A stretch of DNA of 64,000 nt from Candidatus Saccharimonadota bacterium (GTDB taxonomy: Bacteria > Patescibacteriota > Saccharimonadia > Saccharimonadales > Saccharimonadaceae), in the NCBI GenBank assembly GCA_027492735.1, contig JAPUEE010000005.1, forward strand, positions 65,719 through 129,718. Direction: 5' to 3'. Below the pieces are notes generated by a model. The model worked only from the letters and a program-made list of their open reading frames with translations, was not told the DNA's origin and did no database searches. Below, one piece after another: positions 4,308 through 53,476 of the stretch (positions are counted from its first letter, which is position 1; each line of letters starts with the position of its first letter). The position numbers were made by a program, and so were the translations under genes.

Positions 4308-6052
4308 GCACTATAATCAAGCTGCGCTAGACGGCGGCGTTTCTCGGCAGCCTTGGCGGCGGCTTGGTCGAGATGAGCTATTGCGGCATAACGTCTATGA
4401 TCAGCATACCCATAGAGAGGTTGACCAGATCGAGGCAAAATAATAGCTAGGTTTAGGCCAGCATTGGCGCTACCTACCAAGGCGTCGCCTATGTTAACTA
4501 GACCGCTAACTAGACAGGAGACTCGCCCCATTCCAGCTACGCGCGAGGATCTTAGTACGTTTTTTGCGTCGGCGGCAAAGAGAACATCGTGAAGTTCCGT
4601 TGGCGTTAAATTGTTATAGTCGATACCGTTAGCCGTGAACATCTTGACTAACATCCCCTCTTCGGCGAACAAGATCTCATCGAGGTCTTTACGCTGTTCT
4701 TTGGCGTCCAGATCCAGACCTTCTTCGGCGTGAATAGGGTGGTCACGCCACTTGTGTTCAGTTCGCCATGCCATATGTGCCAGGGCGGATAATCTACCAC
4801 CGCCAACTTTGCGGTCGTGTTTTGCTAGCAGATCTACTACCTTTTTTAGATCATCGGACATGTTGCTATCCTCTAGACGATCAGACATCAATTTGCGATC
4901 ACTACGTAACTGAGCCAGGTCTTCGGCACGTTTTTGTTTGCGCTGCTGGCGGGCGCTCGGTGGCAATGTTAAAAATGAATCAATTTTGGCTTGGCGATTA
5001 ACGATTGCTTGAGCGGCCTGTTTGGTGGCTTTTTCCTGAGACTCATTAAATAGATCATTGGCCATTCGATCGGTCTCAGCCGATAAATCCGAAGTGAGAT
5101 TTGACCGCTCTAGATTTTTGGCTAGGCGTTCCAGATCAGATTCTAATTTTTTAGCTTGGGCTTGACGCTGGACGGTTATTGGATCCGGGAGTTTAACCTT
5201 GGGATCAGCTTCGGATAGGGCAATTTCTCGTTTTAGGGAGCGTAACTCCTCGTTGATGCGGAGAACGTCAGCCTTCCAGCCAGCTATTTCTTTGAGTTTA
5301 GGCTCATCCAGTTTTTCATTTTCGACTGGAGTGATGCGAATACCCACCTGGGGCTCTGTGGACGACGGCTGTTGATTGCCCGATGTAGATGATCTAGGCA
5401 TAGGGTTGCCTGGGCTAGTAGGCCCGCTAGGGTTGGTAGGTCCAGCCGGGGCTGATTGATTACCGGGAGCTGCGCCAGGTTGTGTTGGCGAATTGGTATT
5501 GCCAGCAGGAGTTATAGTGATTGCTGGTTTTGTATTGCCTGATGGCTGGTCTGTCTCTGATGGTGTCGTGCTCTCATTACTAGGAGGAGTTTCTTCAGGA
5601 ATAGCCGTAGTCTCTGTCTGATCGATAGCCTCTTCGGATACACCAGGTATTTCTGGGTTCTGACTCTGGTCTAACAGGACCTGTAAATACTCATCGCTTC
5701 GCGCACTATTTCTCGATTTACTACTAGAATTTCGTAGCCATATCTCATCTGCTAGGTGGAAAATAGCAGGCATATCTGGATTATTGCGCCTGGATTCAAT
5801 AAAGCCACGTACGGCACGAGGATTTTTCTCGCGCTGCATCAGTTCAGCTGGACTAGAGAACACCTGGTCCTCATAGGATAAATTAGCAACGAGCGCTTCG
5901 GCCTGCTGTTTGAGAGACAGCTCATCAGGATTCGGATCCGCTGTGACCGAGTCGATAGCCGCGTCAGCTACCTCGCGCTGGATAATTGGATCCGCTAATC
6001 GCTCAGCATTTTCAGGGGTGTTTATCGTATTTGATTTTTCATGATGAGACAT
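4304..6052 (-). CDS. Hypothetical protein with Pro/Ser/Thr-rich linker and coiled-coil region (T4SS-locus associated)
   Basis: Track ORF is 4304..6208. I prefer the Met at 6052 (MSHHEKS) because the 52 upstream codons are AT-rich hydrophobic read-through into the divergent promoter region. Its stop is convergent with and overlaps the stop of the 1085-aa gene. Confidence 0.6.
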   Translation of the reverse strand: MSHHEKSNTINTPENAERLADPIIQREVADAAIDSVTADPNPDELSLKQQAEALVANLSYEDQVFSSPAELMQREKNPRAVRGFIESRRNNPDMPAIFHLADEIWLRNSSSKSRNSARSDEYLQVLLDQSQNPEIPGVSEEAIDQTETTAIPEETPPSNESTTPSETDQPSGNTKPAITITPAGNTNSPTQPGAAPGNQSAPAGPTNPSGPTSPGNPMPRSSTSGNQQPSSTEPQVGIRITPVENEKLDEPKLKEIAGWKADVLRINEELRSLKREIALSEADPKVKLPDPITVQRQAQAKKLESDLERLAKNLERSNLTSDLSAETDRMANDLFNESQEKATKQAAQAIVNRQAKIDSFLTLPPSARQQRKQKRAEDLAQLRSDRKLMSDRLEDSNMSDDLKKVVDLLAKHDRKVGGGRLSALAHMAWRTEHKWRDHPIHAEEGLDLDAKEQRKDLDEILFAEEGMLVKMFTANGIDYNNLTPTELHDVLFAADAKNVLRSSRVAGMGRVSCLVSGLVNIGDALVGSANAGLNLAIILPRSGQPLYGYADHRRYAAIAHLDQAAAKAAEKRRRLAQLDYSA

Positions 6053-6134
6053 ACCTACATAGTAGCAAATTTTAATGATTTTGTCAATGCTTATATTGTT
6101 ATTTTTCATAGCTGTTATGGTAAAATATATACAT

Positions 6135-8993: not shown

Positions 8994-8994
8994 T

Positions 8995-9621
8995 ATGTTA
9001 CGAGAAATTATCAAACCCATTCACATCATTATATTGTCGGTTTTTGTGTTAGCTATAGTGGCGATAGCGGTATGGTCAAATGTTTATCAGGCAAGCAATC
9101 CGATCACTATTAGTAAAGTCCCTACCGATGCAACGGTATATATTAACGGGAAAGAAGTTTCGGGTGATCGTACTAATCTCGCGAATGGGGCCTATACGGT
9201 CAAGGCCACCAAAGATGGTTTTTCTAACTACCAGGATACGGTTATTATAGATGACAACAGCAAATATATCGTCGTGGCACTAGAGCCTGAATCCGACTCG
9301 GCAAAGCAATGGGCCGAGGATAATCAAGATTTATATCTAACACAAGAGCAAATCACCGGCTCTGAAGTCATGGAATCTGGAGCGTCGGTATTAGAGAAAA
9401 ATCCGCTCATTGAAGAGTTGCCAATCCAGGACGGACTTTACTCGGTAGGGTATATCATGGATAGCAGCGATAGCTCTGGCAACTCAGTAATTATTACAGT
9501 TGATACGACTAATGGTTATCGTAATACTGCTATAAAGAGCATTTACGACGCAGGATACGATCCTGCAAATTATAAGATTCAGCTAGAAAACTATACTAAT
9601 CCGTTCAAGGAGTATAAATAA
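8995..9621 (+). CDS. Membrane-anchored PEGA-domain protein
   Basis: ATG at 8995, 1 nt after the upstream stop. N-terminal TM helix IHIIILSVFVLAIVAIAVW. PEGA-like motif PTDATVYINGKEVSGDRTNLANGAYTVKATKDGFSNYQDTVII. Confidence 0.7.
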   Translation: MLREIIKPIHIIILSVFVLAIVAIAVWSNVYQASNPITISKVPTDATVYINGKEVSGDRTNLANGAYTVKATKDGFSNYQDTVIIDDNSKYIVVALEPESDSAKQWAEDNQDLYLTQEQITGSEVMESGASVLEKNPLIEELPIQDGLYSVGYIMDSSDSSGNSVIITVDTTNGYRNTAIKSIYDAGYDPANYKIQLENYTNPFKEYK

Positions 9622-14356: not shown

Positions 14357-14701
14357 CTAGGCTGCCACCCGCTTGGCTGCCTGCTTCCGGCCACGGGCCG
14401 GGTACTTCTGGTGGTGAACCTTGCGGCTCACTGTCGAGGTCCGGCCGAACCAGCCTTCAGTCTGGGCAATCTTGCCCGACTTGATGGCGGCGTCAACGGC
14501 CGCACGGACGGTGGTGGAGAATTCGCCGCTTCGGTAGTCGCCGAGCTGGCGATTCCGGTTGTGAACCTCTCCGGCTAGGAATCGAACCAGCTCACGGCGC
14601 GAGTTGGCACGAATGGCTCCGCCGAACTTCGTGAACACTGCCAGGACTCGTCTCTCGGCGATCCGGATCTGCTCATCGGTTGGCTCGAACTCTTTCACCA
14701 C
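14357..14701 (-). CDS. Hypothetical basic protein (island 1), GTG start as drawn
   Basis: 114 codons with high GC3 and a Lys/Arg-rich C-terminus (KYPARGRKQAAKRVAA). The start is uncertain because of the upstream C10 tract and mini-ORF. Confidence 0.5.
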   Translation of the reverse strand: MVKEFEPTDEQIRIAERRVLAVFTKFGGAIRANSRRELVRFLAGEVHNRNRQLGDYRSGEFSTTVRAAVDAAIKSGKIAQTEGWFGRTSTVSRKVHHQKYPARGRKQAAKRVAA

Positions 14702-14715
14702 CTTCCGATTGCTAC

Positions 14716-14725
14716 GGGGGGGGGG
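14716..14725. repeat. G10 homopolymer (C10 on the coding strand of the island-1 basic protein leader)
   Basis: Ten consecutive G counted directly. A +1 or -2 length change fuses the upstream mini-ORF to the 114-codon ORF. Confidence 0.9.
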
Positions 14726-14903
14726 TATGGCTGGACGATGCGTATGACGTCATCGCTCATCCTCCTCATTCTGTTGTTGTGCGGTGCACCACGTCGTCCT
14801 AGCTGGATTGCCAGGCTATCCGGTGGTGAGATAACTATAAATAGATAATATACTATTGTCAAGCAGTAGCGTAATCACCAGTGTAAACGCGCAACAGTAT
14901 TTA

Positions 14904-14932
14904 TTGACATAAACGTATTTGTATGCTACAAT
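14904..14932 (+). promoter_or_regulatory. Near-consensus promoter TTGACA-17 nt-TGcTACAAT driving the island-1 plus-strand operon
   Basis: TTGACA at 14904-14909, 17-nt spacer, extended -10 TGcTACAAT at 14924-14932. It lies in an AT-rich patch inside the GC-rich island. Confidence 0.6.
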
Positions 14933-15066
14933 AGTAAGCCATTGATCAGACAGCGAACTGGTCAAAGTAGTATTTACGTAGAACTTTTACATAGTAGGAG
15001 GTTTTGAATCTTTCCGATGTGTTATTTCCGCGTTTTTCGTGCGATAGTACACCGGGAGGGTTCGAA

Positions 15067-15411
15067 ATGGACTCACCTGGACAATCCATCGGAAGGAAGA
15101 CGTTGAAACGCTGGATACAAGGCCTAGCCCAATTGATGGGCATCTTCGTGGCCCTCGCGGCCATGAAGCTTGTATTGTTGGTTGACCGCCTAGTACGCTG
15201 GGCGGCCGATCAAAAGTCGCTGGTGGCCTTTGTGGCCATCAGCGTCGTACCGGTGCTGTTTTTCCTCGCAGTCGTGTTCGGCCTTTGGGCCGGGTACGAG
15301 TGGGGAATTATCGCGCTGCTCGTAGTTGCGGCTGGTGGCTCTATTGCTATCTTCGCGCTCATAATGACCGCGGGCCGACTGGTCCGCGCTGACTCGGAAG
15401 CGAGGAGATAA
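15067..15411 (+). CDS. Small polytopic membrane protein (island 1, gene A)
   Basis: ATG at 15067 preceded by GGGAGGG. 114 aa with about 3 TM helices and high GC3. The track ORF begins at TTG 15004. Confidence 0.55.
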   Translation: MDSPGQSIGRKTLKRWIQGLAQLMGIFVALAAMKLVLLVDRLVRWAADQKSLVAFVAISVVPVLFFLAVVFGLWAGYEWGIIALLVVAAGGSIAIFALIMTAGRLVRADSEARR

Positions 15412-15412
15412 C

Positions 15413-15655
15413 ATGACATTGCGAAAGGCGATGGGCCTCTGGTGCAGTCTGTTACTTGTCCAAATGGCTCTGGTAGCCTCAGTTCACGCGAGTACCGATC
15501 ATTACTCGAGTGAGGCTGTCGCCACATTTGATGTATTTGCTGCAATATCCGTTGCGATTGTTCTCGTGTCGGCCACGCTTAGCGTGGTTTGGACAAGGCG
15601 AGAAGCAAAACGGGCAGGTCAATCAACCCACATCAAACCGAGAGAAGGAAAGTAA
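15413..15655 (+). CDS. Small membrane/secreted protein (island 1, gene B)
   Basis: 80 aa. GAGGAG lies 7 nt upstream. Signal-like N-terminus plus one TM helix. Start is 1 nt after the gene A stop. Confidence 0.6.
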   Translation: MTLRKAMGLWCSLLLVQMALVASVHASTDHYSSEAVATFDVFAAISVAIVLVSATLSVVWTRREAKRAGQSTHIKPREGK

Positions 15656-15882
15656 TGATGCGAACGTCAAAATTCCTGGTATGGACTTCGCCAATAACGA
15701 TCTGGGCTGGAGCCGTCTGGGCTGTCGTAGCCGGGATCAACGGAGCCAGCCTCGGCGAGGCCACCGGCATTTTCGGCTGGTTTTTCCTCACCTTCATCAC
15801 CCAGATTCTCGCGGCGATCGCACTTTACGTGATCGCCGAGAAAGAGGAGGAGGCAAGGCGCCGCGGGGTCTGGACGTGGTGA
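15655..15882 (+). CDS. Small 2-TM membrane protein (island 1, gene C)
   Basis: 75 aa. TAATG overlap with gene B. Upstream GAGAGAAGGAAAG. High GC3. Confidence 0.6.
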   Translation: MMRTSKFLVWTSPITIWAGAVWAVVAGINGASLGEATGIFGWFFLTFITQILAAIALYVIAEKEEEARRRGVWTW

Positions 15883-16145
15883 GAGATCACGAGGAACGGC
15901 AAGCGCGCCGTCGACATGACTCCGCCGTGGGCCTGACCGTCGCGGTCGGGTTCACCGTTCTCTGGCTGGGTTTCCGGCCCGAGTGGTTCGGCATTGCGCC
16001 GGATACCATGACGTTCTGGTTCATCCGCCTGGTGGCGGTGATCTTGATCGTCTGCGCGATTAGCTGTGGAGTCCGCATCCACCACAATCGCAAGTCCAAG
16101 TCCAAGGCCGAGAGCGATCTTGGCCTCCCTCCTACAACGCGCTGA
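15879..16145 (+). CDS. Small 2-TM membrane protein (island 1, gene D), GTG start
   Basis: GTGGTGA overlap with the gene C stop. 88 aa with two hydrophobic helices and a basic tail. The upstream part of track ORF 15510..16145 is Arg-rich out-of-frame read-through of genes B and C. Confidence 0.5.
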   Translation: MRDHEERQARRRHDSAVGLTVAVGFTVLWLGFRPEWFGIAPDTMTFWFIRLVAVILIVCAISCGVRIHHNRKSKSKAESDLGLPPTTR

Positions 16146-30938: not shown

Positions 30939-31485
30939 TCTCCCGCTGATCGGAATTTCTGGAACATTTGCGAGTGGCAAAGATACCATTGCCGAGTTTC
31001 TCGTGCGAGATTTTGGCTACACCCACATTTCGACGGGAGACATGGTGCGTAAAGTTGCTATGAACAATTATGGCTCGATTGAGCGTCCAATACTGGTAAA
31101 GACGGCAACGGAATTGCGCTACGACAACGGTGCAGGCGCGCTGGTCGACGAGGCGTTAAAGGAACCTCGACCACTAGTAATCACGGGCATTCGTAGTCTT
31201 GGTGAAGCTAAAGCCCTAAAAGCAGCTGGCGGTACATTGCTATTTGTCGATGCGCCAATCGAAGTCCGCTATGAGCGCATCAAGTCTCGTGCGCGTGACA
31301 ACGAAACCTTACTAACACTCGATCAGTTTCGGGACAATGAAGAAAAGGAAATGTACGCTGGACCGAATGATGAAGACTTTAATATTCGTGGTATCGGCGA
31401 GATGGCGGACATTCATATCGAAAACACGTTACCTCTCGAACAGTACATTTCACTGGCGTATGGCAAGCTCGGTTTATCTAAATAA
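30922..31485 (+). CDS. P-loop nucleotide kinase-like protein (CoaE / dNMP-kinase-like)
   Basis: ATG at 30922 overlaps the rpoD end. P-loop [13 protein letters not shown]. 187 aa. Substrate unknown. Confidence 0.5.
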
Positions 31486-31509
31486 TCTGTAACGTAGTAG
31501 AATAGGTGT

Positions 31510-42360: not shown

Positions 42361-43086
42361 ATGAAAGTTCGTTTAGACCAGTTGTTAGTGAAACGCAAGT
42401 TAGTCGCCACCAGATCTCAGGCAGAGAGCTATATTCGCCTAGGCAAAGTGACGGTAGCAGATAAAACTATTACGAAACCAGGCTATTTTGTCGACGACGA
42501 GGCTCAGCCAAAGCTACTCCAGGATGAGCAGTATGTGTCGCGTGCTGGCCTAAAACTAGCAAGTGTGGCTGAGACGTTACAGCTTGATTTCAAGGGAAAG
42601 GTTGTGCTCGACGTTGGATCTTCGACGGGCGGATTTACTGACTATGCGCTCCGGCGCGGTGCTACTAAAGTCATAGCTGTTGATGTTGGTACTGATCAGA
42701 TGCATCCGAGTTTGCGTGATAATCCGAACGTAGAGCTGTATGAAAAGACTGATATTCGCGATTTTCATGTGGATCAGCCGCCTAATATTGTGGTGATCGA
42801 CGTCAGTTTCATTAGTTTGCGTGACATTTTGCCGCATATCGCGAAGCAGCTGTCTGATAGACATACGCAGATTGTCGCTATGGTTAAACCGCAGTTTGAG
42901 ACGGGATCACGGTTAAAAAATGCTGGTGTGATCAAAAATAACACCGATCGACGCCGTATTTTACAGGATTTTGAATTATGGACGCGCCAGTATTTCGTCA
43001 CTCGTGCCAAGGCTGATAGTGAAGTAGCAGGAACACATGGTAATAGAGAGCGATTCTATCTGTTAGAAACTACCAAAAGTGTATAA
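42361..43086 (+). CDS. tlyA: TlyA-family rRNA 2'-O-methyltransferase (S4 domain + FtsJ-like)
   Basis: RLDQLLVKRKLVATRSQAESYIRLGKV (S4 domain). SAM motif VLDVGSSTGGFTDYAL ... VIDVSFISL. Confidence 0.85.
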   Translation: MKVRLDQLLVKRKLVATRSQAESYIRLGKVTVADKTITKPGYFVDDEAQPKLLQDEQYVSRAGLKLASVAETLQLDFKGKVVLDVGSSTGGFTDYALRRGATKVIAVDVGTDQMHPSLRDNPNVELYEKTDIRDFHVDQPPNIVVIDVSFISLRDILPHIAKQLSDRHTQIVAMVKPQFETGSRLKNAGVIKNNTDRRRILQDFELWTRQYFVTRAKADSEVAGTHGNRERFYLLETTKSV

Positions 43087-43089
43087 AAT

Positions 43090-43118
43090 ATTGCTTTTTT
43101 TATTAAAATATGCTATTA
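43090..43118 (+). promoter_or_regulatory. Promoter TTGCTT-17 nt-TGcTATTAT at the left edge of island 2
   Basis: -35 at 43090-43095 and extended -10 at 43110-43118, in an AT-rich patch right after the tlyA stop. Confidence 0.5.
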
Positions 43119-43353
43119 TGTGATCAGTCTAGTCGAAAACGACTGGAGGTTTCGGTTGAGTTTTGTGAAACGAGGTGTCCTACGGTGTTGCCCCTAGGGG
43201 TGGCATAGATGGGAGCTGCCGTTTCGCGCGCTCCCGTTTTGACAATTTGTTCATCTTTATATTCATGACACACCCGAAGTCTTTTGTCGTTTTCGAATGG
43301 CGAAAAGTCCACGGGGAGGTCTCGTGGCAATCGTTCCAATGAAAGGGGACGGT

Positions 43354-45534
43354 ATGAGAAAGTTGGTAGGACTGGCCTGTGCGCTGGTCCTCACGGTGCT
43401 CGGGGTCATCGCCCCGGCATCAACCGCGTCCGCCCATCAGGGCAACATCAAGGTCTCGGACACGCAGTGCGTGGACGGGAACTCGATGAAGGCCACCTAC
43501 ACCGTAGGTTGGTCCAACGGCACCGGTAGCGGCAAGCTCTACACCAAGAGTGGGCTGTACAGCGGTGGCACGTCAACGTCCGGGTGGGACTTCGAGAAGA
43601 ACGTCTCCGGCGCGTCCGGCAGCGCGTCCTTCACGAAGACCCACACCTTCTCGGGCTCCAACGGCCCGTGGGTGGCGTTCAAGATCATCTTCGACGACAA
43701 CTACGTGGTCGGCGGAGATACCCGCGTCGAGGGCTGGGATTGGGACAAGTGCAAGCCTGCACAGCCTGATCCCAAGACCGTCACCGATCACGAGGAGAGC
43801 TGCAAGATGGCCATGCCGTCGGGCAAGCTCGGTGGCGAACGTGACCGCACCGGTACTCAGGCCTACGTCTGGAACGGATCCAGCTGGGTGCTCGGCGACA
43901 CCATCAAGTGGGGCGACTGGAAGTACACGCCCTACACCGACAGTCAGTACTTCAGCAAGTGTGCCGGGGACAATCCCGGCCCGAAGTACAGCGAGTGGTC
44001 ATCGTGGTCCAACGAGCAGCCGACCTGCGAGAGCACGATGGTGACGCAGACCCGGACGCGCACGAAGACCACTTACACCTGGGTCTGGAACGGCATGAAG
44101 GATCGTGGTGACTGGGTCGTCGATGAGGTGACCGAGGACAAGGAGACCCGCAAGGTCGAGATGTCCGACAAGGACTTCGCGGCCAACTGCAAGCCCGACC
44201 AGCCGGCGCCCAAGGCGCACACCGATTTCCAGAAGGGTTGCACCCTGAACGACGTCGGCGGCACCGCCACTAGGAACGGCACCGAGGCCTACAAGTGGGA
44301 CCTCGAGGATCGCAAGTGGGTCCTCAGTGGCAAGATCGACTGGCAGGACTGGGTCTTCACGGCCTACACCGACCAGGAGTTCCAGGCCAACTGCGCAGGT
44401 TCTCCCGAGCCCGACAAGGTCGTGGTGGACAAGGGCGAGTGGGTCGGGCAACCGACCTGTGATGCTCCCTCGATCTACCAGACTCGCGAGGTGGTCACGA
44501 CGACCACCAAGCAGGTCTGGAACCTCGATCTCCGCAAGTGGGAGTGGGGGACGCCGACCTCGGTAACCACCACGGAGACCGCCAAGAAGCCGACCGAGCT
44601 GACCAAGGATCAGATCAAGGCCTGCCATCCCAAGGATGCGCCGACCTTGGCCTACACCGGTCAGACCTGCACCGTTGGTGATCAGGGAGTCGGCCAACTT
44701 CACGGCGGCAGCCTGACGGTTACCAGCAGCGGCTGGACCGTCAAGGTCACCGACAAGGACGGGAAGGTCGTCAAGGACCTGACCGATCTCGATCCCGGCA
44801 ACTACACCGTCACGGCCAGCCTGGCCGATCCTGACGGTACCTCGGCTGGGAACATCGACGGCTGGACTCCGGGCGAGGACGGCACGATCAGCCAGATCGT
44901 CAACATCGCCACGGCGGACGACTGCACCATTCTCGAGCCGAAGCCCCGCGTGGAGCCCAAGGTCGAGGAGAAGCTCGAGTGCGACGGGGCCTACCGCCGC
45001 ACCTGGGATCTGGTCAGCTATCCCGTCTGGAAGGACGGGGAGTGGACCTTTGACGGGGTCGAGCCCAAGGTCGAGAACGAGACCGAGTGGAAGAAGTTCC
45101 GCGAGCTGTCGAACGACGAGTGGTTGGCCGCTGGCTGCCGCTCTGACCAGCCGCCGGCTCAGGTTCGTGTGATCCACGACCAGGGTTACAACTGTGATGG
45201 ACTCTGGGGTCGTACCCAGACCGGTACCACCGAGTACGTGTGGGTATGGTCCGGCATGGCCGACCGTGGCAGCTGGGTCCTCGGCGACGAGGTGCTCGGC
45301 GACTGGAGCGAGTGGACGTTCGTCCGCGAACTGACCAAGGCGGAGAAGGCGGAGTTGGGCTGCAACAGCACCCCGAATTCGCCGAATCAGCCGAAGGTGC
45401 CCCCAGTAGACGAGGACAACAGCGATGGCGTTCGCGCCGCCGCTGACCCTGCGCCGCTCATTGGCCTGGGTGTTCTCGCCGCGCTCGGCATCGCCGGTGC
45501 AGTCATTGCCATCCGGCGCCGCCGTCAGGCATGA
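43354..45534 (+). CDS. Secreted Cys/Trp-rich repeat surface protein with C-terminal TM helix + RRRR anchor (no LPXTG)
   Basis: ATG at 43354 after GAAAGGGGA. Signal peptide MRKLVGLACALVLTVLGVIAPASTASA. Six modules of about 55-70 aa are bracketed by Cys and rich in Trp/Tyr. C-terminus is DPAPLIGLGVLAALGIAGAVIAIRRRRQA. Confidence 0.8.
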   Translation: MRKLVGLACALVLTVLGVIAPASTASAHQGNIKVSDTQCVDGNSMKATYTVGWSNGTGSGKLYTKSGLYSGGTSTSGWDFEKNVSGASGSASFTKTHTFSGSNGPWVAFKIIFDDNYVVGGDTRVEGWDWDKCKPAQPDPKTVTDHEESCKMAMPSGKLGGERDRTGTQAYVWNGSSWVLGDTIKWGDWKYTPYTDSQYFSKCAGDNPGPKYSEWSSWSNEQPTCESTMVTQTRTRTKTTYTWVWNGMKDRGDWVVDEVTEDKETRKVEMSDKDFAANCKPDQPAPKAHTDFQKGCTLNDVGGTATRNGTEAYKWDLEDRKWVLSGKIDWQDWVFTAYTDQEFQANCAGSPEPDKVVVDKGEWVGQPTCDAPSIYQTREVVTTTTKQVWNLDLRKWEWGTPTSVTTTETAKKPTELTKDQIKACHPKDAPTLAYTGQTCTVGDQGVGQLHGGSLTVTSSGWTVKVTDKDGKVVKDLTDLDPGNYTVTASLADPDGTSAGNIDGWTPGEDGTISQIVNIATADDCTILEPKPRVEPKVEEKLECDGAYRRTWDLVSYPVWKDGEWTFDGVEPKVENETEWKKFRELSNDEWLAAGCRSDQPPAQVRVIHDQGYNCDGLWGRTQTGTTEYVWVWSGMADRGSWVLGDEVLGDWSEWTFVRELTKAEKAELGCNSTPNSPNQPKVPPVDEDNSDGVRAAADPAPLIGLGVLAALGIAGAVIAIRRRRQA

Positions 45535-45583
45535 TGTGAGAAGATGAACAAGTGCGAACTGCCAGCCAGGTAGCTCGCTCCCT

Positions 45584-45622
45584 GGGGTCTGATCTTGTCG
45601 CTCTCGCGACCGATCAGACCCC
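45584..45622 (+). terminator. Long hairpin plus T-rich tail after the surface protein gene
   Basis: GGGGTCTGATC ... GATCAGACCCC with inner GTCGC-tctc-GCGAC, followed by tcttctcatttc. Confidence 0.6.
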
Positions 45623-45679
45623 TCTTCTCATTTCTGGGGACAAAGATGTATAAAAATATTTTACAAAAAACACTAAATG

Positions 45680-45688
45680 TGATATAAT
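45680..45688 (+). promoter_or_regulatory. Extended -10 (TGaTATAAT) in the AT-rich spacer upstream of the sortase-like gene
   Basis: Exact TGnTATAAT, about 90 nt before the ATG at 45779. GAAGGTGG Shine-Dalgarno at 45763-45770. Confidence 0.55.
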
Positions 45689-45778
45689 AGAAAGTGCGCC
45701 TAGCAACAGATGCAAATCTGACTGGGCTTACCTCGAAGTAATCAATCTATCCATAATCCACAGAAGGTGGTGAACGTA

Positions 45779-46477
45779 ATGAAGCGCACAGTACTTGCCA
45801 TGCTTTGCCTGGCGGTGAGCGCCGCGTCGCTGTTCGGTGCCTTCTGGTACTGGAACAACGTCTACGCGGAGATCGAGGTCCCGATGGCCCCAATTCCGTC
45901 GCCAACGGTATCGTCGATCACGGTGCCGGTGAACGACGACGAGAAGCTCCCGCCGGTCGACATGCCGGAGAACCCTCGCGGCAAGCTAGATCACCTCGTT
46001 ATCTACCACGGTGGCAAGGCCATCGTCTCGATGGATTTCGGTCCAGCGACCTACGATTCCCTAGGGTGGGGATCCGAGTGCGGCAAGGTGGCCTATCGCG
46101 ACCGCGACGACTTCCCAAAGCCTGGTTTCGCCAGCAAAAACCGTTCGCTCGTGTCAGGTCACGTCTGGTGTGATAGGGAAACCTATACGCTAAACGATCT
46201 GGACAAGGTTCGGAAAGGTGACCGGGTTGAGGTCTACTACTCGTCCGGAGACGTGGCGGTAGGTCAGGCTGAGGCCGACGCCGCCGCCCTGCCGAAGGAC
46301 GAGCTGAATGCTGAACACAAGGGTCAGGTCAACCCCCGGCTCCGCAACAGCAAGAAGCTACGGACGATGCGAGTCAGTACCTGTGACACTGACTCGCCGG
46401 TGCGGGCGAACGGCCACTTGTCGGCCAACGTCTACGTACTGTACACGTTCAAGGAAATCAGATTTGCCGAACAGTAG
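45779..46477 (+). CDS. Membrane-anchored sortase-like transpeptidase (class E/F-like)
   Basis: 232 aa. N-terminal TM helix. His motif SLVSGHVW, then DKVRKGDRVEVYYSSGDV, Cys motif TMRVSTCDT and NVYVLYTF, in the order and spacing seen in actinobacterial sortases. High GC3. Confidence 0.6.
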   Translation: MKRTVLAMLCLAVSAASLFGAFWYWNNVYAEIEVPMAPIPSPTVSSITVPVNDDEKLPPVDMPENPRGKLDHLVIYHGGKAIVSMDFGPATYDSLGWGSECGKVAYRDRDDFPKPGFASKNRSLVSGHVWCDRETYTLNDLDKVRKGDRVEVYYSSGDVAVGQAEADAAALPKDELNAEHKGQVNPRLRNSKKLRTMRVSTCDTDSPVRANGHLSANVYVLYTFKEIRFAEQ

Positions 46478-46499
46478 GAGGAAATTGATGTTCGAGGTA

Positions 46500-46525
46500 C
46501 CCCGTCCCTGTCACAGGGGGCGGGG
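46500..46525. terminator. Imperfect GC hairpin between the convergent sortase-like gene and ychF
   Basis: CCCCGTCCCTG-tca-CAGGGGGCGGGG (one mismatch/bulge), then tattctcat. Confidence 0.45.
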
Positions 46526-46536
46526 TATTCTCATAG

Positions 46537-47715
46537 TTAGACATTAAATCGGAATTCGACGATGTCATCAGGCTGCATAATGTAGTTTTTGCCTTCGGTG
46601 CGAAGTTTGCCGGCAGCTTTGGCGGCCGCTTCTGAGCCTAGCTCGATCAGATCCGGATATGAAACAATCTGAGCAGCAATAAAGCCTTTTTCAAAGTCAG
46701 TGTGAATGACGCCGGCGGCCTGTGGGGCGGTCGAACCTTGTGTGATGGTCCAGGCGCGAACCTCTTTTGGTCCAGCCGTCAAATAACTCTGGAGACCTAA
46801 CGTATCATAGGCGGCGTGCGCCAGTTTTACGAGGCCGGATTCAGTAACGCCGTAGTCGGCGAGCAGTTCGGTGGCTTCGACGGCGCTCAGCTCGCGGAGT
46901 TGGCTTTCGAGTTCGGCGCAGACAAAGACAACCTGCGGACCGCCTGATGATGATAGCTCTCGCGAACGCTCCGCGCGCCCGTCGTTACGGGGCTTGTCGC
47001 TGGCGCCATTGCCGTCCTGCTGGAGCCTCGCGAGAGCCACATCATCACCGATTATTCTAGCTAATTCCTGTTGCTTTGTCTGGTCAGTCAATCCGTTCTC
47101 GTCGACATTGAACAAATAAATTATTGGTTTAGCAGTTAACAGATCGAGACCGTGTAATTTTTCGCTATCAAAACTAGCTGGTGTATTGCCAGCGAGCAGC
47201 TGACTCTGGAGAGTTGTGAGATAGTCGACAGTGGAGCGCATCTTTGGATCACTCTTGGCTTCTTTCATGACCTTTGGTAGATGATTTTCGATGGTGGCGA
47301 TGTCGGCGAGCATGAGTTCGGTGTTGATGACTTCGATATCGCTCTTCGGATCAGTAATCGTGGCGCCATCGGCTCTCTGGACGGTTGATGACTCAAACGC
47401 TCGAACCACGTGACAAATAGCGTCACATTCACGAATATTGGCGAGGAATTTATTGCCGAGACCTTCGCCACGACTAGCGCCTGCTACAAGACCGGCGACG
47501 TCAACAAATTCCACGGTAGCGGGGATGATCTTGTCGGTTTTATACAGGTCTGCGAGTACGTCGAGGCGCTCATCAGGAACTGGTACGATGCCAGTATTAG
47601 GTTCGATTGTCGCAAATGGGTAGTTAGCAGCTAAAATAGTGCCGCCTGTCAGGGCGTTAAATAGGGTGGACTTACCAACGTTGGGTAACCCGACGAGACC
47701 GATCTTGAGACTCAT
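46537..47715 (-). CDS. ychF: Ribosome-binding ATPase YchF, with about 30-aa internal insertion
   Basis: GLVGLPNVGKSTLFNALT G1 motif. C-terminal TGS-like GKNYIMQPDDIVEFRFNV. 392 aa, against about 363 typical. Confidence 0.9.
   Translation of the reverse strand: MSLKIGLVGLPNVGKSTLFNALTGGTILAANYPFATIEPNTGIVPVPDERLDVLADLYKTDKIIPATVEFVDVAGLVAGASRGEGLGNKFLANIRECDAICHVVRAFESSTVQRADGATITDPKSDIEVINTELMLADIATIENHLPKVMKEAKSDPKMRSTVDYLTTLQSQLLAGNTPASFDSEKLHGLDLLTAKPIIYLFNVDENGLTDQTKQQELARIIGDDVALARLQQDGNGASDKPRNDGRAERSRELSSSGGPQVVFVCAELESQLRELSAVEATELLADYGVTESGLVKLAHAAYDTLGLQSYLTAGPKEVRAWTITQGSTAPQAAGVIHTDFEKGFIAAQIVSYPDLIELGSEAAAKAAGKLRTEGKNYIMQPDDIVEFRFNV
46956..47037 (-). repeat. GC-rich in-frame mini-insertion, copy 2 (in ychF), with 10-bp terminal inverted repeats
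   Basis: GCTCTCGCGA (46956-46965) and TCGCGAGAGC (47028-47037). Encodes LARLQQDGNGASDKPRNDGRAERSRE. Homologous to the argS patch. Confidence 0.6.
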
Positions 47716-52411: not shown

Positions 52412-53476
52412 ATGGAAAACGTTAGAATCGAGATATTACTACAAGAAGTCATTAATCAACGGGCAAGCGACTTACACCTGCAAGTCGGGTTGCCGCCGAT
52501 TCTACGTGTGGATGGGGCTCTTGCGCCGATTAATAATACCCCAGTTCTCAGTATCGAGGCAGTCGAAAAGCTCATTTTCTCTATCTTGGACCAAGATCAA
52601 CAGCAAATCCTCATGAAAGACAAAGAGTTTGACTTTTCCTTTGCCTTTGGTGACCTGGGCCGATTTCGCGTTAACGCCTTCCACGAACGCGGTAACCTAG
52701 CCGCAGCTCTCCGTTTGATTCCGAACGAGATTCCGACTATTGCTGAGTTGGGATTGCCACGAATTATCGAGAAATTTTCTGACTTTCCACGCGGTTTAGT
52801 GCTCGTGACTGGGCCAACTGGTTCTGGTAAGTCAACAACGTTGGCGGCGCTCGTCGATAAAATTAACGAGGAAAAATCACATCACATCATCACCATCGAA
52901 GATCCGATTGAGTTTACCCATAAATCGAAACGCTCGGTGGTCGTTCAGCGCGAAGTTCACTATGATACGTATTCGTTTAACGCAGCGCTCCGTTCAGCGC
53001 TCCGCGAAGACCCGGATGTCGTGCTCATCGGTGAGATGCGCGATCTCGAGACAATTTCGGCAGCCATTACTATTGCAGAAACTGGACACTTGGTGTTTGC
53101 AACGTTGCACACTAACAGCGCTGCGCAGTCGATTGATCGTATGGTGAACGTTTTCCCGCCGCACCAGCAGCCTCAGATTAAAATTCAGCTCGCTAATATT
53201 TTGCAGGCAATCTGTGCGCAGCGTCTTGTCCCAGCCATTGGTGGTGGACGACTGGCTGCTGCCGAGGTGCTGCTCGCTAACAGTGCTGTCCGCAATATTA
53301 TCCGCGAAGGCAAAACCCATCAGTTAGACTCAGTGATTCAAACCAGTGCTGCCGAAGGTATGCAATCAATGGATCGCACGCTGGTACAAATGGTACAAGG
53401 CGGACAGATTACCTACGAAGAGGCCAAAAACTTCGCCGTAGACCTAGCAGAATTTGATAGGATGATGAAAGGATAG
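52412..53476 (+). CDS. pilT: Type IV pilus retraction ATPase PilT
   Basis: 354 aa. ASDLHLQVG, Walker A TGPTGSGKSTT, VVLIGEMRD, TGHLVFATLHTNSA, AIRNIIREGK. Confidence 0.9.
   Translation: MENVRIEILLQEVINQRASDLHLQVGLPPILRVDGALAPINNTPVLSIEAVEKLIFSILDQDQQQILMKDKEFDFSFAFGDLGRFRVNAFHERGNLAAALRLIPNEIPTIAELGLPRIIEKFSDFPRGLVLVTGPTGSGKSTTLAALVDKINEEKSHHIITIEDPIEFTHKSKRSVVVQREVHYDTYSFNAALRSALREDPDVVLIGEMRDLETISAAITIAETGHLVFATLHTNSAAQSIDRMVNVFPPHQQPQIKIQLANILQAICAQRLVPAIGGGRLAAAEVLLANSAVRNIIREGKTHQLDSVIQTSAAEGMQSMDRTLVQMVQGGQITYEEAKNFAVDLAEFDRMMKG

Follow-up and report, generated by a model that had tools for sequence, protein, structure and literature searches.

Results

Two GC-rich islands in a Saccharibacterial window

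We analysed a 64,000-nt stretch of a Saccharibacterial contig (hereafter the window), which has about 47% GC and a gene content that includes pyrG, pyrH, argS, tlyA, ychF and a type IV pilus cluster. It probably stems from a member of the Nanoperiomorbaceae: its EF-P falls in a 90%-identity cluster in which the named members are 'Candidatus Nanoperiomorbaceae bacterium' (phylum Saccharimonadota). Native genes (n = 47) have a GC3 of 0.446 ± 0.038. Island 2 (43,354–46,477) holds a gene for a 726-aa surface protein and a gene for a 232-aa divergent sortase, and island 1 (approximately 14,357–16,145) has a GC3 of 0.64–0.76; GC-richness is not seen in the window's remaining secreted or highly expressed genes. 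Island 2 and its borders are laid out as follows.

43,090–43,118, plus strand: predicted promoter of the surface-protein gene, TTGCTT-17-TGCTATTAT, directly 3′ of the tlyA stop codon
43,125–43,353, plus strand: predicted 5′ leader of about 229 nt, with a 5′ hairpin, a long hairpin with TTGACAATTTGTTCATCT (43,239–43,256) and the Shine–Dalgarno (SD) site GAAAGGGGA (43,341–43,349)
43,354–45,534, plus strand: surface-protein gene, 726 aa, 64% GC, GC3 0.85
45,430–45,534: candidate sorting-signal region, with counterparts in the C termini of L004, L015 and L030
45,536–45,631, plus strand: conserved, terminator-like 3′ RNA element with three stems, closing with CCCCTCTTCTCATTTCT
45,660–45,688, plus strand: predicted promoter of the sortase gene, TTTACA-17-TGATATAAT
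45,695–45,778, plus strand: predicted sortase leader of about 84 nt, with a conserved box, GGGCTTACCTCGAA, and the SD GAAGGTGG (45,763–45,770)
45,779–46,477, plus strand: predicted divergent sortase gene, 232 aa, N-terminal transmembrane (TM) helix, GC3 0.76
46,498–46,527, no strand assigned: GC-rich hairpin ACCCCGTCCCTG...CAGGGGGCGGGGT followed by ATTCTCAT, between the convergent sortase and ychF genes

A search of the whole window against Rfam at the gathering score returned a single tRNA, and at E ≤ 1 the interval 42,900–46,700 gave no match for the leaders or the 3′ element. We found no account in the literature of the island-2 locus or of Saccharibacterial promoter architecture. We note that three stretches of the window are poor in open reading frames: 4,308–6,074 (1.77 kb), 8,994–9,620 (0.63 kb) and 30,939–31,509 (0.57 kb). 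They hold no frame of 70 aa or more except one of 77 aa at 4,768–5,001, and no Rfam match at the gathering score.

Extended −10 boxes precede the GC-rich genes

Promoters of the sigma-70 extended −10 class have in common a TTGACA-like −35 hexamer, a 17-nt spacer, TG at −15/−14 and a TATAAT hexamer; we looked for hexamers near TTGACA and TATAAT, 16–18 nt apart, with TG one base 5′ of the −10 hexamer. The motifs quoted in a first-pass annotation of this DNA were all found where it had placed them. The box before the sortase gene matches 11/12 hexamer positions and has the extended TG, as does the island-1 box, TTGACA-17-TGCTACAAT (14,904–14,932, plus strand; 11/12, 17-nt spacer). The box before the surface-protein gene matches 8/12. 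TG stands one base upstream of the −10 hexamer at all three sites. Shuffling each patch 5,000 times never reached the score of the 45,660 promoter and reached that of the 14,904 promoter three times. The score of the 43,090 box was reached in 1,315 shuffles (26%), which by itself lies within chance, and what speaks for this box as a putative promoter is its orthologous position in other lineages.

The patches at 45,623–45,766 and 14,830–15,040 each have 35% GC and the promoter core at 45,633–45,700 has 29%, compared with 59–64% in the coding sequences that flank them; spacers with native promoters in the window have 24–38%. The whole gap between the two island-2 genes had been described as AT-rich. 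This is true of 45,623–45,766, whereas the first ~95 nt of the gap (45,535–45,778) have 59% GC and form a structured 3′ element. The extended −10 motif TGNTAYAAT occurs 19 times in the window against 4.6 expected, a count reached in none of 100 shuffles, and 10 of the 19 copies sit 6–7 nt 5′ of an ATG, that is, before about 10 native genes. A TAnAAT box at this distance precedes the ATG of about 20 native first genes, which for this reason look leaderless, in agreement with the earlier proposal that most native first genes lack a leader. On the assumption that transcription starts 7 nt 3′ of the −10 box, the three GC-rich units would have leaders of about 84, 128 and 229 nt, within the proposed range of about 65–230 nt.

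Native units with an extended −10, a leader and an SD also exist: pyrG and the genes at 52,412, 62,247, 18,769 and 38,961. SDs of native leadered genes include GAGGAGG (pyrG), GGGAGGG (52,412), AAGGAGG (13,023 and 38,961) and GAGGGGAGG (59,918). The SD sequences before the GC-rich genes thus recur before native genes with leaders. They are of recipient style, and the idea that the GC-rich genes retain donor-style translation signals does not hold; nor, on these comparisons, would having a leader mark a gene as foreign. The AT-rich patches thus have the features of recipient-type promoters, predicted to be functional in the Saccharibacterial host. Compared with extended −10 promoters elsewhere, nothing about the promoters is odd; it is the setting that differs, between GC-rich genes and with leadered transcripts predicted.

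Island 1 carries a predicted divergent promoter region

Island 1 sits between pyrH and argS in the window's relatives L026, L027 and L029, which share its divergent AT-rich promoter region. It comprises the following features.

14,357–14,753, minus strand: gene with GC3 0.76, frameshifted at a 10-G run (14,716–14,725)
14,834–14,862, minus strand: predicted divergent promoter TTGACA-17-TATAGT, which would drive the 131-aa minus-strand gene
14,904–14,932, plus strand: predicted promoter of four small membrane-protein genes, with a leader of about 128 nt and the SD GGGAGGG (15,054–15,060)
15,067–16,145, plus strand: four overlapping small membrane-protein genes, GC3 about 0.64

Homologues of the minus-strand gene encode 125–131 aa and start with MTSYASSSHTPPR. 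Deletion of one G from the run restores a 131-aa frame; the run reflects either phase variation or a homopolymer error. The plus-strand promoter is conserved in L026 and L029, and the number of small membrane-protein genes varies between relatives. A TTG start at 15,004 was discarded, as relatives have TTC there. A search for att sites and flanking repeats at island 1 gave short repeats at chance level only. The leader (14,990–15,066) contains a near-duplicate of its own ribosome-binding region, with TAGGAGGTTTTGAATC about 60 nt before GGGAGGGTTCGAAATG. This duplication is conserved in L026 and L029 and may be a decoy or standby site.

A conserved three-part spacer precedes the sortase gene

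Four lineages carry the 232-aa sortase (the window, L015, L004/6 and L030–35), and in all of them the gap before its gene has three parts in the same order: the 3′ RNA element, an AT-rich core with TTTTACAAA-N-TGnTATAATA, and the leader. Both TTTTACAAA and TGnTATAATA are invariant across these lineages, the sortases of which are 53–75% identical. The leader boxes CGCC and GGGYTTACCTCRAA are likewise invariant, and the SD is of the GGAGGTG type. Between the window and L015 the spacer is 81% identical and a 39-nt block spanning the promoter is 100% identical; between L004 and L030 the spacer is 77% identical, compared with 51% at four-fold sites of ychF and 59% for the sortases. Sequence kept this well compared with neutral sites, and in a fixed place before the gene, argues for purifying selection on the promoter; a function in anchoring recombination could account for part of the conservation. 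A canonical PF04203 sortase gene directly follows the upstream gene in L020 and L024, with zero spacer, which indicates that the promoter module goes with the 232-aa sortase gene.

The 3′ element starts at the stop codon of the surface-protein gene and is a stable, GC-rich structure (minimum free energy (MFE) −52.1 kcal/mol, z = −5.6 in the window). Six of its 27 pairs are held through changes on both sides in the four lineages, and a 58-nt stretch is identical in L015. In the outer stem, GAGAAGA after the stop codon pairs with TCTTCTC. The element resembles intrinsic (Rho-independent) terminators in being a long GC-rich hairpin with compensatory changes straight after a stop codon. It differs from them in having three stems and a pyrimidine-rich tail in place of a U-run: the hairpin is followed by TCTTCTCATTTCT, with 8 T in 13 and no clean U-tract, and a consensus scan for intrinsic terminators made no call here. 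Instead of terminating transcription, the element may stabilise the mRNA or mark a site for its processing. Its CTGCC-N-GCCAGG loop resembles the loop of the leader hairpin at the other end of the predicted surface-protein transcript, and one RNA-binding factor might recognise both mRNA ends.

Within the GGGCTTACCTCGAA box region of the sortase leader lies an anti-SD sequence, TTACCTC (45,728–45,734), which may mask the ribosome-binding site. Pairing with the SD is possible in three of the four lineages; it shows no covariation and is missing from the MFE fold of the window, and for this reason we treat masking as a suggestion only. The hairpin between the convergent sortase and ychF genes is 83% identical to that of L015.

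The surface-protein gene has a predicted structured leader

The 726-aa protein has a signal peptide, an AHQGNIKV N-terminal beta domain and repeated all-beta modules; it closes with VDEDNSDG, a TM helix and an RRRR tail, its C terminus reading VDEDNSDGVRAAADPAPLIG-TM-RRRRQA. A Pfam search with the protein found no family, and Foldseek with its model returned generic beta-sandwich noise only. No match was obtained with tblastn against 50,697 phage genomes, and no relatives came up in three scans of viral contigs, run with P0017, the surface-protein alignment and the island-1 protein. Among the homologues of the island protein, one bears the annotation 'Candidatus Saccharimonas sp.'.

A TGnTAnAAT box stands at the orthologous place in all ten loci from other lineages, just after tlyA (in L010, after the preceding gene) and mostly with TTTACA 17–18 nt upstream. 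Some 90 nt 3′ of the −10 box, ten lineages share a leader box, TTRACAATTC(ATCATCT), which forms the 3′ strand of the long hairpin. Folding of the leaders gave z-scores of −1.4 to −4.3. In a trimmed set of six lineages the consensus has three stems, with only two compensatory pairs; RNAalifold on a nine-lineage MAFFT alignment of the upstream leader, which aligned poorly, gave no structure. The window and L015 are only 48% identical in this leader. A second promoter at the conserved leader box TTGACAATT was considered and rejected, as no lineage has a −10 hexamer after the box. We also observed that the leader hairpin with TTRACAATTCATCATCT and an apical GCTGCC...GGCAG recurs 5′ of the surface-protein gene in ten lineages (window 43,125–43,270; L013 7,873–7,948; L004 5,523–5,585; and others) and belongs to no Rfam family.

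A sortase-fold enzyme with a candidate new sorting signal

The 232-aa protein scores 20.8 bits against the Pfam Sortase family (PF04203), under the cutoff of 26.6, and 17.6 bits against the NCBIfam class F model, for which the cutoff is 166. Its AF2 model (pLDDT 79.6) has the sortase fold: the top eight Foldseek matches in the PDB are all sortases (E values 8e-6 to 5e-3, probability 0.99–1.00). Residues H128, C202 (in RVSTCD, which is TxxTC-like) and R209 are invariant in nine sequences. From model and alignment we assign the protein as a predicted divergent sortase with a putative His/Cys/Arg triad; island 2 would thus encode a surface protein with a dedicated divergent sortase beside it. Nothing meaningful came from searching PDB sequences with an HMM of the sortase alignment. 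A sortase scan of GTDB representatives found one Saccharibacterial genome, one spurious 21-residue match and no actinobacterial copy.

Homologues of the surface protein that lack the 232-aa enzyme carry LAYTG, LAKTG or LPNTG near the end, ahead of a TM helix and a basic tail; LAxTG substrates are typical of the class E sortases of Actinobacteria. Neither LPXTG nor LAXTG precedes the TM helix in the surface proteins beside the 232-aa sortase (window, L004, L015 and L030). What stands there, some 15–20 residues ahead of the helix, is VDEDxxDG (window, L015 and L004) or TDEDDGDG (L030), a candidate new sorting signal that is probably of a non-LPXTG kind. The arrangement is like that of Gram-positive sortase–substrate pairs in that a membrane-anchored enzyme of sortase fold lies beside a secreted protein that ends in a TM helix and a basic tail. 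It is unlike them in that the enzyme falls below the Pfam and NCBIfam cutoffs, the substrate lacks LPXTG and LAXTG, and the two genes are split by a terminator-like element and a promoter predicted to serve the sortase gene alone.

Island 2 occupies the same slot across Saccharibacterial lineages

We drew loci from NCBI, ENA, JGI and Logan assemblies; a metagenome scan with a seven-sequence alignment supplied five. The surface-protein gene lies in the tlyA–ychF slot in at least ten Saccharibacterial lineages (L004–9/L011, L010, L013, L015, L016–18, L020, L021–24 and L030–35), just upstream of the convergent ychF and directly 3′ of tlyA, except in L010, where tlyA is absent. The gene is accompanied by the 232-aa sortase, by a canonical PF04203 sortase or by neither. 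Between three deep clades, EF-P, TlyA and YchF are 62–70% identical. In every lineage the GC3 of the surface-protein gene (0.67–0.88) exceeds that of the flanks (0.32–0.60).

Even the closest relative, L015, with an EF-P 92% identical to that of the window, is only 34–53% identical at four-fold sites of the flanking genes, against a random expectation of 26–29%; the surface-protein genes of the two have a four-fold GC of 0.84 and 0.78. DNA identity to the island of the window reaches at most about 75% at any other locus. The base composition of the island is atypical, as in genomic islands, and the island is present in every related locus fetched; a search for mobility signatures at the islands (integrase, tRNA target, flanking direct repeats) found none. 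No close homologue was found in a candidate donor, the high-GC relatives being 31–42% identical in amino acids and 69% in DNA. Deep synteny and near-saturated synonymous sites argue that island 2 is not a recent insertion, and a four-fold GC kept past saturation shows that its composition is not a passive relic of one old transfer. The GC-richness of the coding DNA outlasts synonymous saturation and is maintained by a force beyond present explanation.

Two further observations concern the neighbourhood. The ychF gene of the window (minus strand) contains a GC-rich (61–65%) insertion of about 31 codons (~46,930–47,040), reading ...QQDGNGASDKPRNDGRAERSRELSSSGGPQ.... L015 (361 aa) lacks it, as do L013, L017, L020, L023 and L024, each with a YchF of 360 aa; in other lineages YchF has 374–397 aa. 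More genes with raised GC3 (0.68–0.75) lie near the locus in L010 (11,607–12,722, minus strand), L016 (6,886–8,718, minus strand) and L020 (12,813–13,505). One of them has a faint Ig-like match, and GC-rich genes of surface type may be recurrent in these genomes.

High-GC relatives lack the AT-rich spacers

Relatives of the surface protein are also found on three GC-rich contigs. L019 (72.6% GC) has housekeeping genes of actinobacterial type and encodes a 1,024-aa homologue with a PF04203 sortase nearby. L025 has 69% GC. L014 (1–11,484; 65.5% GC) is phage-like, with many small open reading frames that match PHROG families, among them deoxyribosyltransferase, MazG-like pyrophosphatase, excisionase and exonuclease; blastn with its context gave only two tiny actinophage matches. 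The L014 copy (498 aa) is 42% identical over 438 aa, with a DNA identity of 69%, and ends in LAYTG. Upstream of the genes on L019 and L014, the DNA is GC-rich and has no extended −10 boxes.

The first-pass annotation had proposed that the foreign-looking genes are set up for transcription by the recipient. This is borne out by boxes that match the sigma-70 extended −10 class and by high-GC homologues that lack them. It had named the presence of such AT-rich spacers in the nearest high-GC homologous loci as a refutation. Taken literally, this is what we find, since those loci are other Saccharibacterial ones and the spacers stand in them. The absence of the spacers from the homologues on high-GC contigs indicates that the regulatory DNA is Saccharibacterial and was not imported with the genes.

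In a short, unrooted tree of the N-terminal domain, L021/22 have a window-type domain, whereas their flanks place them in the L013 clade; L015 clusters with L010 and not with the window; and the actinobacterial sequences fall with one Saccharibacterial type. The conflict between this tree and that of the flanks indicates that alleles have moved. Saccharibacteria are naturally competent (PMC10633639).

Discussion

We conclude that the AT-rich patches are probably functional sigma-70 extended −10 promoters of the Saccharibacterial host, and fixed modules of an old, syntenic cell-surface locus. The surface-protein gene would be transcribed from the promoter abutting tlyA, through a structured leader of about 229 nt, and its mRNA would end at, or be stabilised by, the three-stem element at 45,536–45,631. 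Transcription of the sortase gene would begin separately from TTTACA-17-TGATATAAT, with a predicted start near 45,695, and the CCUC-type anti-SD box of its ~84-nt leader may mask a ribosome-binding site of the GGAGGTG type. The enzyme would thus be expressed from one unit and its substrate from another.

The −10-like hexamers that AT-rich DNA readily produces raise the question of whether the boxes are chance strings, with the sortase gene co-transcribed with the surface-protein gene. The 43,090 box, matched by 26% of shuffles, would fit such an account, as would L020 and L024, where the sortase gene abuts its upstream neighbour and must be co-transcribed with it. We regard it as extremely improbable, since the 45,660 promoter was never reached in 5,000 shuffles, its hexamers, TG and spacing are invariant across lineages with sortases 53–59% identical, and a conserved, covarying hairpin element lies just upstream. 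The first-pass annotation had read the alternation of composition below 200 bp as a sign that promoters were captured or evolved after transfer, or that the islands were assembled stepwise, with translation signals kept from the donor; both islands would then be recent foreign DNA from a high-GC donor. A GC3 of 0.76–0.85 against 0.45 ± 0.04 in native genes is what such an origin would leave, and homologues do occur, without AT-rich promoters, on contigs with 72.6% (L019), 69% (L025) and 65.5% (L014) GC. Against this, lineages with EF-P, TlyA and YchF only 65–70% identical have the same gene or genes in the tlyA–ychF slot, along with homologous promoter, leader and terminator, and each relative examined has both islands at the corresponding sites. 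Searches at the islands for a tRNA, an integrase and flanking direct repeats found none, the best DNA identity is about 75% or less (69% to the phage-like copy), synonymous sites are near saturation and yet four-fold GC stays at 0.84 and 0.78, and the SDs are of native style. We therefore give a recent foreign origin very little credence. The mosaic is instead probably the product of selection on regulatory DNA beside GC-rich coding DNA that an unexplained force keeps as it is.

Where the coding DNA came from is a separate matter. The coding parts have relatives among actinobacterial surface proteins, a gene pool from which they may derive; in that case they arrived before the sampled lineages split, or alleles have been exchanged repeatedly since. 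A less favoured, though by no means negligible, alternative is that the genes are native and were never transferred, that a local force (GC-biased gene conversion at a recombination hot spot, or selection acting on codons or mRNA) keeps up their high GC3, and that the actinobacterial and phage copies are recipients or distant paralogues. Homologues do lie mostly in Saccharibacterial contexts (5.8 billion proteins searched), and a GC3 of 0.67–0.88 in every lineage despite saturation is not what a passive relic, which should have ameliorated, would show. The conflict between N-domain and flank trees suggests frequent allele exchange, and the natural competence of Saccharibacteria (PMC10633639) points the same way. 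An absence of transfer sits less well with the other secreted and highly expressed genes of the window, which are not GC-rich, and with the LAxTG-type signals of many homologues, which recall actinobacterial class E substrates. The GC3 excess of 0.2–0.45, moreover, far exceeds what has been reported for bacterial biased gene conversion.

More speculatively, the tlyA–ychF slot could be a replaceable surface-protein cassette, its coding DNA repeatedly re-seeded through natural competence from a high-GC pool of actinobacterial hosts and phages, and the AT-rich modules serving both as expression signals and as recombination anchors. We think this improbable as it stands. If true, it would explain a GC3 of 0.67–0.88 past saturation, the tree conflict and spacers better conserved than either gene, and it would point to host-derived adhesins and to binding of the epibiont to the host surface. 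Re-seeding from the host pool via competence (PMC10633639), biased conversion at an exchange hot spot and selection are all candidates for the lasting GC-richness, and the data do not decide between them.

Under the amelioration model for horizontally acquired islands, reportedly due to Lawrence and Ochman, the locus has the expected strongly atypical coding composition and relatives in a high-GC phylum, one that includes the hosts of cultivated Saccharibacteria. It departs from that model in that every relative examined has the islands, which are free of mobility genes and stay atypical in GC3 past saturation, where the model predicts the opposite.

Native-type promoters are to be expected before compositionally odd genes if these are expressed, and the promoter finding as such is ordinary: the patch is a common type of regulatory module, in a locus that is of interest. 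For Saccharibacteria, a group with very few known expression signals that has only lately opened to genetics (PMC10633639), it offers promoter, leader and terminator modules validated by comparison. A coding GC3 of 0.2–0.45 above that of the genome, across saturated divergence, is unpredicted by amelioration and could report gene flow between epibiont and host. The locus itself, conserved in place and fast-evolving, with a surface protein beside a divergent sortase, is a plausible determinant of host attachment.
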